A stretch of DNA of 45,491 nucleotides from the sequence record PQ141284.1. One strand, given 5' to 3'. Shown here one piece after another: positions 31,860-34,202 of the stretch; within the stretch, counting starts at the first letter, position 1; every line of letters begins with the position of its first letter. The notes below the pieces were generated by a model. It did not search any database and had not been told where the DNA came from. It saw only the letters and a list, made by a program, of their open reading frames with translations. The position numbers and the translations under genes were made by a program. This DNA is from Escherichia phage fEg-Eco06.

Positions 31860-33280
31860 TTCTTACCTCGTCTCTTCATGTAATTAAGCAACTCTTCCTG
31901 TACCGATTTCTTCTCGTCAGTACGTGTGGTAACAACCTCGTCCAGCGTGTCTTTAGCGACGATGTGATAGAGGAACACCGGTCGCTCGTGCCCCGCTTGT
32001 TTCTGGCGGACCGGGCCTATACGCTCAACAACCTGCAAATAGTGCTCAAGGTTCCAGCCTTGCGAGATGAACGCCAGATGATGACCCCCGTCCTGTAAAT
32101 TCAAACCATGCCCGGCTGACGCAGGATGCACGCATAAAATCTCGATTTCCCCACGGTTCCACGCTTCCATCTGCTTATTACCCTTCGCACCTTTGGCAAA
32201 TGCCTGGGCCTGCGGGAATCGCTTAAGGATGCGCTCCAGTTCGTGCTTGAACTGATAGGCCACCAGTAACGGCGCGCCCTGTAACTCTTCCACAATGGAC
32301 TCCAGTGCGTCCAGTTTCGTGTCGTGCACTTTCTCCCAGTCTTTGGTTGCTTCGCCGTCAGGGCCAGATACATACACGGCACCGGAGGCAATCTGCAGAC
32401 ACTTCGACGTCTTCGCCGCTGCGTTAGCCGCTTCAACTTCTCCGCTCTCCAGTTCCGCGAATAACTTCTCCTCCATATCTATGTACGCCTGGCGCGCTTT
32501 CTTCGGCAGGTCGATTTCCACCGGTACGATAACAGGCGCTTCACAACCGAACCACTCGGCGGCGTCAATCGTCAGACTGATGTCCTTCATCTTCTGGTGA
32601 ATCTCGTTATCTGCACCAGGGCGGGCGTGATATTCACGTGCCATCGCAGATTTTCCTTTCTGTACCGAATTAAACCAGCGGTCGGTGAATGCTGTATACG
32701 ACGAACCTAGGCGCTCGCCAGCGTCGATAAACCAGTTCTGGCCCCACAAATCCTTGAGGCCGTTTGGTGACGGTGTACCAGTCAGGTTAATAAAACGCTT
32801 AACCCTTCCGAAAGCCACTTTACTAAGCGCCTTTGCACGCTTGCTACCACCTGAACGGCTGCGGAATGATTTAAGCTTCGTGCTTTCATCTGCAACGATA
32901 ACCGTAAAAGGCCAGTCGTCTTTGCCGTAGTAGTCAATCAGCCACTCGATAACCTCATAGTTCGTGCAAACCACGTTAGCATCTGACTCCAGCGCCGCGA
33001 TGCGGCGCTTCTCTGAACCAGTCGCATCTACAACACGCAGACATGGGAATTGCCATTTCTCTTGCTCTGCAGGCCACGTACCGGATGCAACACGCAACGG
33101 GGCGAGGATTAACACGCGGTCATCTTCTGTAAGCTGCCCGTTGCGAAACAGGCGATTAAGCACCCACATAGTTGAGGAGGTTTTGCCCCCTCCCATGCCG
33201 CACCAGATATTACAGCGCGGGTGTTGCAGCATGAACGAGGTCATGAGCTTCTGATATTCGCGCCTTTTAAACTTACTCAT
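31856..33280 (-). CDS. SNF2/DEAD-like superfamily 2 helicase
   Basis: 474 aa; Walker A GMGGGKTS; DExx box VIVADESTKL. Confidence 0.7.
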   Translation of the reverse strand: MSKFKRREYQKLMTSFMLQHPRCNIWCGMGGGKTSSTMWVLNRLFRNGQLTEDDRVLILAPLRVASGTWPAEQEKWQFPCLRVVDATGSEKRRIAALESDANVVCTNYEVIEWLIDYYGKDDWPFTVIVADESTKLKSFRSRSGGSKRAKALSKVAFGRVKRFINLTGTPSPNGLKDLWGQNWFIDAGERLGSSYTAFTDRWFNSVQKGKSAMAREYHARPGADNEIHQKMKDISLTIDAAEWFGCEAPVIVPVEIDLPKKARQAYIDMEEKLFAELESGEVEAANAAAKTSKCLQIASGAVYVSGPDGEATKDWEKVHDTKLDALESIVEELQGAPLLVAYQFKHELERILKRFPQAQAFAKGAKGNKQMEAWNRGEIEILCVHPASAGHGLNLQDGGHHLAFISQGWNLEHYLQVVERIGPVRQKQAGHERPVFLYHIVAKDTLDEVVTTRTDEKKSVQEELLNYMKRRGKK

Positions 33281-34202
33281 TTACTGCCCCCATGAATGCC
33301 TTTATAAATTCAGCGGCTACTTGCGGGACGATGGCATTGCCATAACCGCGCAATCGTCCCACTCTGGCGGGTATCCCATTAGCCAGCGGGAATGTGCCGG
33401 GTTCAACTGGCCTGAATTTTCCATCCCGGCATCCGAGCCAGTCTGCCTCTGACCAGAAGCCGTGATGCGGATTGGTCGCGATATTTTCAGTCCCTGCTCC
33501 GTTGAGTAGTCCAGCCTGTCGAAAGTCCGGTCCTTTCCGTCCTTGCGAATCACTGTCTCTCCGCTCCCTCTGTAATCGTTCGCGGTCGGCGTCGCCCATG
33601 CCGTCATCGCGGCGGCCCACCCCAGTTTGTTCGGTTTCGTCCTGCCGTCTGTGCTGCGCATGTTCACGTCGTTTGTTATCAGTGATACTGCTGGCGTGGG
33701 CCAATCTATGCGCGCCGAAGAAAAGTCGGTCGCGTTTGTGCGGTGCGCCGACGCTACAAGCCGGGAGTACGGCAAACCCGACGGCGTAGTTTTCTCCTTC
33801 CAGGTGAGTTTGTAAATCGCACATCCACGATTTTGCAATTGCTGGCGCAACCTGCTCCCCAAAGAGGACTGGAGGGCAGCACTCGCTGATGAGGTCGAGG
33901 AACACAGGTGCGAGGTGTCTCGGGTCGAACTGTCCGAGTTGCTTTCCCGCTGCGCTAAACGGTTGGCAAGGCGGGCTTCCCGTCCAGAGAGGCGCATCTT
34001 CCGGAACTCCCGCAAGTCTGAGCGCGAGAGGCCAGCCGCCGATACCAGCGAAAAAATGACACTGGGTGAATCCGTCGAGGTCTTCTGGCTTAACTTCAGT
34101 AATGCTTCTTTCATCTACAACTCCAAAAGGTATGTGACCCTGTTTTATTAATTCACGCAGCCACGCGGCTGCGCCTTTATCCCATTCGTTGTAATAGTTC
34201 AT
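33273..34202 (-). CDS. DNA (cytosine-5)-methyltransferase
   Basis: 309 aa; FFAGIGGW (motif I), SPPCQPFSAAGK (PCQ catalytic motif IV), LFGEQV (ENV-like), GNAIVP (motif X). Confidence 0.75.
   Translation of the reverse strand: MNYYNEWDKGAAAWLRELIKQGHIPFGVVDERSITEVKPEDLDGFTQCHFFAGIGGWPLALRLAGVPEDAPLWTGSPPCQPFSAAGKQLGQFDPRHLAPVFLDLISECCPPVLFGEQVAPAIAKSWMCDLQTHLEGENYAVGFAVLPACSVGAPHKRDRLFFGAHRLAHASSITDNKRREHAQHRRQDETEQTGVGRRDDGMGDADRERLQRERRDSDSQGRKGPDFRQAGLLNGAGTENIATNPHHGFWSEADWLGCRDGKFRPVEPGTFPLANGIPARVGRLRGYGNAIVPQVAAEFIKAFMGAVNE

Follow-up and report, generated by a model that had tools for sequence, protein, structure and literature searches.

A gene for a C5-cytosine methyltransferase in Escherichia phage fEg-Eco06 (ORF A) holds a second gene of 265 codons (ORF B) wholly inside it, on the same strand but in the +1 frame. 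Both are coding frames, selection acts on each over particular segments, and start signals are present for B. The reading we favor, to which we give a probability of roughly two in three, is that A and B are the two polypeptides of one C5-cytosine methyltransferase encoded by the same DNA, with A as the catalytic and B as the recognition chain. We infer that the two chains bind each other, that B sets the specificity, and that the product is 5-methylcytosine. Positions refer to the window, i.e., the whole stretch of 45,491 nt that was analyzed (PQ141284.1), and the features are collected in Table 1.

Table 1. Features of the A/B locus and its two reading frames. The frame-specific substitution ratios (omega_A, omega_B) are rough as absolute values.
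Feature	Position	Strand	Description
ORF A	33273..34202	-	309 aa, ATG start; C5-cytosine methyltransferase catalytic (large-domain) subunit
A residues 1-165	33708..34202	-	Conserved N-terminal part with motifs I, IV, VI and VIII; omega_A 0.18-0.35; M.HhaI alignment
Motif I FAGIGG	34035-34052	-	In A
Motif IV PPCQPFS	33954-33974	-	In A
ENV-like GEQV	33849-33860	-	In A
Motif VIII PHKRDR	33726-33743	-	In A
A residues 166-245	33468..33707	-	Charged low-complexity linker, 80 aa, between motif VIII and the C-terminal block
A residues 246-309	33276..33467	-	Conserved block GFW..ADW..CRDGK.RPVEPG..PL and motif X; invariant columns; omega_A 0.15-0.44
Motif X GNAIVP	33324-33341	-	In frame A, C-terminal block
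ORF B	33317..34114	-	265 aa, wholly inside A in the +1 frame; proposed recognition (small-domain) subunit
Probable B ribosome-binding site GGAGTTGTAGATG	34112..34124	-	GGAG 34121-34124, 6-nt spacer, ATG 34112-34114
Second candidate B start, Met40	33995-33997	-	ATG, with GGAG 9 nt upstream
B residues 1-70	33905..34114	-	Ser/Thr/Arg-rich N-terminal extension; omega_B 0.94 and 0.90; pLDDT below 50
B residues 76-123	33746..33889	-	Conserved helix and beta-hairpin, SS.SA.LQSSL..RL ... LYKLTWK..TPSG....L.AS; pLDDT 85-89
B residues 124-215	33470..33745	-	Variable region of W-x-T-P modules (DWPTP, AWATP); omega_B 0.56-0.64
B residues 216-265	33320..33469	-	Conserved C-terminal block ending P.EWD.C; invariant columns
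Motif-IX-like segment of B	33368-33406	-	Within the C-terminal block; likeness by eye only

The methyltransferase gene and the frame nested in it

ORF A lies in the replication module of a lytic Kagunavirus. It overlaps its neighbours at both ends: its start ATG shares an ATGA with the stop codon of the gene upstream, and its stop and the start of the helicase gene overlap likewise. The open reading frame given in a preliminary description was confirmed, and motifs I, IV (PCQ) and X and the ENV-like motif were found where it had placed them. Its assignment of the protein to the C5-cytosine methyltransferases is also borne out, as PF00145 matches A (residues 68-186 only, E 2.7e-16), phrog_363 matches with E 3e-88, the A family profile aligns to M.HhaI residues 72-172 (motifs IV-VIII, E 7e-15), and Foldseek matches include M.HhaI, M.HaeIII and DNMT1. 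A carries features of the superfamily, i.e., the PCQ catalytic Cys of motif IV, the ENV-like motif (VI) and the R.R of motif VIII. FAGIGG and GNAIVP are invariant across the family, but the Pfam and PDB profiles stop short of both, and they were therefore assigned to motifs I and X by inspection against E. coli Dcm. Segments resembling motifs II and III seem to precede motif I in the N-terminus of A, in a profile alignment below threshold. The AlphaFold model of A alone has low confidence (pLDDT 49), and we draw no fold from it beyond the core of A.

The preliminary description took the charged low-complexity segment of A for a replacement of the recognition domain in a compact enzyme. The segment is indeed present, with 44% R/D/E/Q compared to 19% in the remaining protein, and is predicted to be disordered (pLDDT below 50). 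The role proposed for it is not supported, as the segment is neutral and the +1 frame of its DNA encodes the conserved ORF B, which had been missed. B is 798 nt long, covers 86% of A, and spans the entire charged segment. It matches phrog_1008 (E 6e-59), and neither Pfam nor NCBIfam has a model for it.

The N-terminal extension of B is unconstrained in sequence and predicted to be disordered; it is open in most relatives and interrupted by stop codons in 6 of 130 loci. In three of these six (L108, L111 and L115), B begins instead at about A codon 93-94, at an ATG preceded by an SD-like AAGGG. The DNA for the helix and beta-hairpin of B is dual-coding and also encodes motifs VI-VIII of A, and the DNA for the C-terminal block of B likewise encodes the conserved C-terminal block of A. 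The W-x-T-P modules between these two parts number from 0 to 6 per relative; the B protein of fEg-Eco06 has two and that of K1G one, a difference of one 35-aa module. This variable region is probably the target-recognition part.

The 13-letter motif-IX-like segment of B resembles motif IX of Dcm (RRLTPRECARLMGF; LTPRECARLMGF) by eye, and profile comparisons are not significant. Searches of PDB sequences with the B sequence and two B-family profiles gave no supported match, hhalign of the B profile against E. coli Dcm gave a probability of 0.2, Foldseek with the B model returned nothing significant, and Pfam searches with isolated terminal fragments were negative. Across these sequence, profile and Foldseek searches, no statistically supported likeness of B to a known recognition domain, motif IX or solved structure was found. 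The AlphaFold model of B alone (pLDDT 60) is too poor to infer a fold.

The Shine-Dalgarno motif of B is made from A codons G27-V28-V29-D30-E31. Among 129 loci, the first B-frame ATG is preceded by an SD core in 57%, compared to 10% for control ATGs (p 4e-34), and 43% are without a clear SD core before this ATG. The VDERSI motif of A was identified in 121 loci, and in 107 of them the first B-frame ATG lies -8 to +34 nt from it. Where this ATG is at +22, 73% of the loci use the rare Arg codon AGG that forms AGGAG, compared to 8% for Arg codons elsewhere.

Conservation and selection in the two frames

Both ORFs, with B in the +1 frame of A, are present in all 167 related loci, across which A identity ranges from 42 to 100%. 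The loci were gathered with either A or B as query, and the arrangement was the same either way. The layout is found in epsilon15, BcepC6B, K1G, Bordetella phage PHB09, Xanthomonas phage PhiXhv-18 and an rV5-like phage, and B forms 10,011 clusters at 50% identity, spread over phages and prophages of many proteobacteria plus a cyanophage. No one-chain relatives, with B in frame after the PF00145 core, were found among the longest B-like cluster representatives or the distant phage matches checked. Because B is nested in A, the co-occurrence of the two is automatic and does not count independently towards a shared function.

The +1 frame is open over a mean of 292 of 327 A codons compared to 123 in codon shuffles. 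Openness of the +2 frame equals the chance expectation from such shuffles, and open stretches on the opposite strand are no more than chance. The linker of A has no A-frame stops in 130 of 130 loci, with 2.5 expected per locus, in a set that is biased because the loci were chosen for a contiguous A match. A-frame openness was therefore retested on loci found by the other protein only, and the A frame ran without a stop across the B core in all 44 loci recovered with B alone (5.6 expected). Conversely, from the ENV motif to CRDG the +1 frame had no stop in any of the 67 loci recovered with A alone (2.9 expected). That length variants are all multiples of three was dropped as evidence, as this is trivially true of intact ORFs.

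Frame-specific substitution ratios were obtained from 20 close relatives and from 47 independent pairs from other clades, and the two sets agree. The absolute omega values given here are rough, since the sequences are related and their distances were left uncorrected. In A, purifying selection is confined to the two ends, and the linker is neutral, with omega_A of 1.02 and 1.00 (0.94-1.07) in the two sets. The linker must be translated through and kept stop-free, but its amino acid sequence is unconstrained. B is constrained from about residue 75 (A codon ~100) to its stop, with its first ~70 residues neutral, and over the charged segment of A it is under purifying selection (omega_B 0.56-0.64). 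Two stretches of ~50 codons each show constraint on A and B alike: A codons ~105-165 (omega_A 0.32-0.35, omega_B 0.53-0.54) and the shared C-terminal DNA (omega_B 0.42-0.65, omega_A 0.34-0.38). The internal controls lie near 1, with omega_B of 0.89 past the stop of B and omega_A of 1.00 in the linker.

A proposed two-chain enzyme and its alternatives

A has no conserved sequence at the position of the recognition domain; its own chain holds a neutral, disordered linker between motifs VIII and X, where a recognition domain and motif IX would stand. The middle of B is modular and variable in length, like recognition domains. Because this segment of A is neutral, and B in the +1 frame is selected, variable and motif-IX-like, it is probably this other frame that encodes the recognition function. 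In the two-chain enzyme that we propose, translation of A would begin at its own ATG, coupled to the gene upstream, and A would supply the AdoMet-binding and catalytic domain with motifs I-VIII (residues 1-165) and motif X (residues 246-309). The 80-residue linker would connect these two pieces, its sequence being irrelevant and only stop codons barred. B would initiate at the internal ribosome-binding site ~90 nt into A, in the +1 frame, and following a dispensable disordered N-terminus it would present the helix-hairpin, the variable W-x-T-P modules and the motif-IX-like block, which together might be the equivalent of the small domain that reads the target in one-chain enzymes. A and B may then associate non-covalently on DNA, methylate the phage DNA and shield it from host restriction. 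The preliminary description had seen no restriction partner nearby, and the annotation of the whole genome of phage Golestan, the nearest relative and 96.5% identical over the A/B locus, lists none. Its statement that the specificity cannot be predicted from sequence also still holds; the place to look, however, is ORF B.

B could alternatively be translated separately and be unrelated to methylation, e.g., a regulator or an anti-defence protein overprinted on a tolerant linker, which would leave A alone as a methyltransferase of low or no sequence specificity. This would agree with B being without detectable likeness to known recognition domains or folds, and with the low-confidence prediction for most of B, which is common for overprinted proteins. 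In addition, the conserved 40-residue block of A before motif X could be a minimal DNA-binding element. However, the C-terminus of B matches the spacing and key residues of motif IX (L.P.....LMG[YF]P, by eye) and A is without a good motif IX, while a small domain is present in every characterised C5-methyltransferase. The modular, length-variable middle of B is the expected look of a specificity element, and the sole experimentally studied enzyme with such a gene layout requires both chains (PMC2836561). We consider an unrelated function of B unlikely.

The order A, B, A would restore the canonical succession of motifs I-VIII, recognition domain, IX and X if a single chain were made by ribosomal frameshifting or transcriptional slippage, with a +1 shift from A to B after motif VIII and a -1 shift returning to A ahead of motif X; intragenic SD-like sequences can stimulate frameshifting. 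At each junction, however, purifying selection acts simultaneously on both frames over ~50 codons, and therefore no single path through the two frames uses all constrained sequence. Canonical -1 heptamers are no commoner than in control frames (10 of 130 loci, compared to 10 and 12), and no conserved slippery heptamer or homopolymer was found in these 130 loci. The SD lies 6-8 nt from the ATG, which is initiation spacing, and ~300 nt upstream of the needed shift site, and the linker of A is kept stop-free, which a double shift does not need. Such recoding is very improbable. A double frameshift or sequencing error was rejected, as both frames are constrained at both junctions, slippery sites are absent, and the layout is found in every relative. 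The majority of database records annotate A alone, as would be expected if only A were a gene, i.e., a compact methyltransferase with a charged segment for a recognition domain, and B a chance open frame. This is already contradicted by the tests of openness and selection, as openness of the +1 frame extends to every relative and far exceeds expectation, and purifying selection on B falls exactly where A is neutral; B also has start signals. We give this reading almost no credence.

Annotations present thousands of phage and prophage "DNA cytosine methyltransferase" genes as encoding a single protein. Which of the two ORFs is lost, A or B, varies with the gene caller, and NCBI's pipeline labels an intact copy as two pseudogene fragments. 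Cloning of native DNA brings B along unnoticed. A codon-optimised synthetic A would destroy B and would probably give a dead enzyme, so both frames are required for assigning specificity and for engineering. For targeted methylation, methyltransferases that are split in nature offer a point of departure, as with M.EcoHK31I (PMC2836561). The 798-nt same-strand nested pair, with ~100 doubly constrained codons and reciprocal neutral spacers, is also a clean and abundant model of overlapping genes, and bears on how such genes persist and diversify.

Comparison with known systems

A shares the PCQ cysteine, the ENV-like motif, R.R and GN(A/S)(I/V) with M.HhaI, M.HaeIII and E. coli Dcm, but in these enzymes a single frame runs from motif VIII through the recognition domain and motif IX to motif X. 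M.AquI of Agmenellum quadruplicatum resembles the proposed pair in being a natural heterodimer with the catalytic motifs and part of the recognition apparatus on separate chains (PMC3404938). It is split inside the variable region, with motifs I-VIII on the large subunit and the remaining variable region plus motifs IX and X on the small one (PMC3404938). In fEg-Eco06, in contrast, motif X stays on the catalytic chain A, and the second gene is nested. The lambda Rz/Rz1 spanin genes are similar in that the second gene is fully embedded in the +1 frame of the first and the products share one function. However, Rz1 is a short gene of about 60 codons that serves an unrelated function, whereas B covers 86% of A, and A and B each read through the essential segment of the other as a spacer.

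M.EcoHK31I is a type II m5C methyltransferase of E. coli with the site YGGCCR (Lee, Kam & Shaw 1995, via PMC2836561 and PMC3404938), and is compared here by its published description. Its beta gene lies wholly inside alpha in another frame, activity needs both, and in vitro the enzyme is active without the first ~40 residues of beta (PMC2836561; PMC3404938). In enzymes of this type, motifs I-VIII and X are on the large chain and motif IX is on the small one. The A/B pair likewise has a second chain nested in the first gene in another frame, and the dispensable N-terminus of beta has its likeness in the unconstrained first ~70 residues of B and in the short B forms of L108, L111 and L115. M.EcoHK31I differs in that it belongs to a restriction-modification system, whereas A/B of fEg-Eco06 is an orphan in a lytic phage. 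Furthermore, alpha is described with a (predicted) recognition domain, whereas A is neutral there and only B is constrained. The principle of two nested chains is thus already known, as it is documented for M.EcoHK31I. No description of the nested A/B arrangement in phages was found in the literature; "Mte8-like" is an annotation label only. Collectively, the two-chain architecture is known in principle, and its scale is large, with ~10,000 B clusters and frequent mis-annotation. We tentatively raise the possibility, which we hold to be doubtful at present, that these loci are a large and essentially unrecognised family of obligately interleaved gene pairs. The essential segment of each gene would be the sequence-indifferent spacer of the other, and the specificity subunit B would evolve as W-x-T-P modules, which must be open in two frames, are added or lost. 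M.EcoHK31I might then be a restriction-linked member of this family, with its recognition domain really on beta.

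A charged methyltransferase and the frame nested within it

The preliminary description had placed a cytosine-5 methyltransferase with a charged low-complexity middle on this DNA, and that gene, called A here, is present. Residues 68-186 match Pfam PF00145 (E 2.7e-16), the family profile aligns to motifs IV-VIII of M.HhaI (E 7e-15), and full-length A matches PHROG 363, labelled "DNA methyltransferase" (E 3e-88). Foldseek with the low-confidence model of A still returned C5-methyltransferases. Motifs I, IV, VI-like, VIII and X were all located, with motif X assigned by inspection from an alignment of YGNAIVPQVA with FGNSVVVPVF of Dcm. 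The charged segment, here termed the linker (residues 166-245), consists of 44% Arg, Asp, Glu and Gln compared to 19% elsewhere.

A second open reading frame, B, lies on the same strand entirely within A. It matches PHROG 1008 (E 6e-59), a family distinct from that of A which also carries the label "DNA methyltransferase", and reads in order LYKLTWKEKTTPSG, DWPTP, AWATPTANDYRG and a C-terminal stretch. Read in the other frame, this sequence gives the charged low-complexity segment of A. Both frames are annotated in the records of phages K1G, K1H and K1ind, as "C-specific methylase" and "Mte8-like protein", while most remaining records annotate only A. No Pfam or NCBIfam model for B was found, and an exhaustive HMMER search collected B-like proteins in 10,011 clusters at 50% identity. 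Among the cluster representatives, P0138 and P0137 extend beyond the B-like part, one of them into a Dam N6-adenine methyltransferase domain (PF05869) and the other into a DUF2800/PD-(D/E)XK nuclease domain; both may represent read-through fusion to the adjacent gene.

The source phage is a Kagunavirus (Guernseyvirinae); the closest record is that of phage Golestan, with 96.5% identity across the A/B locus. No restriction endonuclease is annotated in the Golestan genome, in agreement with the earlier view that no cognate one is seen near A. Both ends of A overlap neighboring genes, which suggests translational coupling along the replication operon. The N-terminus of A holds a segment resembling methyltransferase motifs II/III (YYNEWDKGAA..., then G.VDERSI..V.P.DL) that precedes motif I (FAGIGG, residues 51-56). 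Below threshold, HMMER matched this N-terminus to residues 36-47 and 3-32 of M.HhaI in swapped order. Relative to M.HhaI, the first three beta-alpha units may be permuted; the AlphaFold model of this region is not good enough to decide.

Coordinates of features at the A/B locus and at two related loci
Feature	Record	Position	Description
ORF A	PQ141284.1	33273-34202	minus strand, 309 aa
ORF B	PQ141284.1	33317-34114	minus strand, 265 aa, +1 frame of A
Probable start signal of B	PQ141284.1	34112-34124	GGAG-6 nt-ATG
Motif II/III-like segment	PQ141284.1	34070-34196	A residues 3-45
Near-invariant stretch	PQ141284.1	33368-33440	~70 nt; RPVEPGTFPL of A and overlapping B segment
Upstream overlap	PQ141284.1	34199-34202	ATGA; ATG of A and stop of 63-aa gene
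Downstream overlap	PQ141284.1	33273-33280	8 nt; last codons and stop of A, start of SNF2-type helicase gene
Prophage copy (E. coli ECCTRSRTH03)	L173	2345-3547	intact A (400 aa), intact nested B (334 aa)
First ~34 residues of A, Pseudomonas phage PMG1	L005	1127-1222	frame differs from remainder
Remainder of A, phage PMG1	L005	1209-2015	

Conservation and selection in two frames

A tblastn search with B matched 243 phage records, with hosts including Escherichia, Klebsiella, Salmonella, Rhodobacter, Burkholderia, Xanthomonas, Pseudomonas and Vibrio. In epsilon15, BcepC6B, PhiXhv-18, Bordetella phage PHB09 and an rV5-like phage the match falls within frame +1 of the methylase CDS given in the record, and in PMG1 and a cyanophage the annotated gene is B itself. 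In each of 167 phylogenetically related loci (166 collected loci and the window), B occupies the +1 frame of A. On average, 292 of 327 A codons are open in the +1 frame across a non-redundant set of 139 loci, compared to 123 when A codons are shuffled; the +2 frame is open as by chance (65 against 73 codons). Openness of the antisense frames is unremarkable. Because part of the loci had been chosen for an intact A, the test was rerun on loci found with one protein only. Those found with A had no +1-frame stops between the ENV motif and CRDG (67 of 67; 2.9 expected per locus), and those found with B had no A-frame stops across the B core (44 of 44; 5.6 expected, with a chance of zero of ~0.005 per locus).

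Each substitution was classed by its effect in either frame (OLGenie-style), with omega_A = pNN/pSN and omega_B = pNN/pNS. The counts covered 20 close relatives and, with bootstrap intervals, 47 independent pairs drawn from other clades.

Frame-specific omega (close relatives / independent pairs), from uncorrected distances among phylogenetically related loci
Segment	omega_A	omega_B
A codons 1-~100	0.22 / 0.18	0.94 / 0.90
A codons ~105-165	0.35 / 0.32	0.53 / 0.54
Linker, A codons 166-245	1.02 / 1.00 [0.94-1.07]	0.56 / 0.64
A codons 246-294	0.38 / 0.34	0.65 / 0.42
After the stop of B (14 codons, few sites)	0.18 / 0.44	0.57 / 0.89

The omega_B past the stop of B in the larger, independent set (0.89) provides a built-in null for that frame. 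These ratios show that A is constrained at both ends, which are joined by a linker required only to stay open, and that constraint on B begins near residue 75 and extends to its stop, the preceding stretch being mostly kept open and otherwise free. Both frames are under constraint in two segments of ~50 codons each. The idea of a compact enzyme without a recognition domain is therefore not borne out, as the B frame is constrained across the linker where omega_A is about 1. Judged from sequence, A instead probably supplies the catalytic half of a heterodimer, with the other half encoded in its +1 frame.

One stretch in the C-terminal part of the locus is near-invariant as protein in both frames, in the window and in all relatives, even between phages with only 40-50% overall identity, and may serve as a family-wide DNA probe. 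The NCBI pipeline labels the E. coli prophage copy as a pair of partial methyltransferase pseudogenes, one "missing C-terminus" and the other "missing N-terminus", which looks like an annotation artefact from the unalignable linker and is a practical database consequence of the nested layout. An MT-A70 methyltransferase gene lies directly upstream of this copy. In phage PMG1, A is broken near its start while B is intact, reflecting either a sequencing error or a lineage losing A.

Start signals of B

In 107 of the 121 loci with the invariant VDERSI motif of A, the first ATG of the open stretch of B lies -8 to +34 nt from the V codon. A Shine-Dalgarno (SD) core 4-12 nt 5' of this ATG was found in 57% of 129 loci; elsewhere in these genes, 10% of ATG trinucleotides have one (odds ratio 11, p 4e-34). 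Two layouts recur, that of the window and AGGAG-8 nt-ATG, in which the SD is formed by Arg-Ser codons of A. In 73% of AGGAG-8 nt-ATG loci this Arg is encoded by the rare AGG, which serves for 8% of Arg elsewhere; such a preference constrains synonymous sites of A and can be understood only as a signal for B. Across the loci, neither canonical -1 heptamers nor runs of one nucleotide showed conservation.

The N-terminal extension of B is dispensable, since it is interrupted by stops in 6 of 130 loci, and in three of these (L108, L111 and L115) B begins at an ATG at A codon ~93-94 with an SD-like AAGGG 5' of it. Two loci from IMG/VR metagenome 3300045988 (L094 and L103) carry a T7 instead of a T6 run in the HFF codons of motif I (CATTTTTTT). 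The shifted frame lets the ORF from the ATG of B enter motif I of A, with the first ~49 residues of A lost. T7 is probably a homopolymer sequencing error, but the T6 run is present in 26 of 130 loci.

Role of B and known two-polypeptide enzymes

AlphaFold predicts residues 1-70 of B as disordered, followed by a confident helix (76-93) and beta-hairpin (101-123); the remainder, like the linker of A, is of low confidence. The middle of B holds 0-6 W-x-T-P modules across relatives, and fEg-Eco06 (two) and K1G (one) differ by exactly one 35-aa module. A 13-residue C-terminal segment lines up by eye with motif IX of Dcm, LTPRECARLMGF, and B profiles gave nothing significant against solved structures or Dcm. 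From the position of B, the lack of constrained sequence in A there, and precedent, we infer that B is the recognition subunit.

The principle of a nested two-polypeptide methyltransferase is already known from one enzyme; we found no description in the literature of its generality in phages, the reciprocal-spacer layout or the dual-constrained segments. M.EcoHK31I, whose beta gene lies inside the alpha gene in another reading frame, requires both polypeptides for activity, and the first ~42 residues of its beta polypeptide are unnecessary in vitro, with internal Met codons usable as starts (PMC2836561; PMC3404938). As described in print, this enzyme is a close fit to the layout of the A/B locus. 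However, the phage enzyme is an orphan, unlike M.EcoHK31I, and only the B frame is constrained between its motifs VIII and X, whereas M.EcoHK31I alpha is said to hold the (predicted) recognition domain. M.AquI is split differently from A/B, and lambda Rz/Rz1 is an analogue in architecture only.
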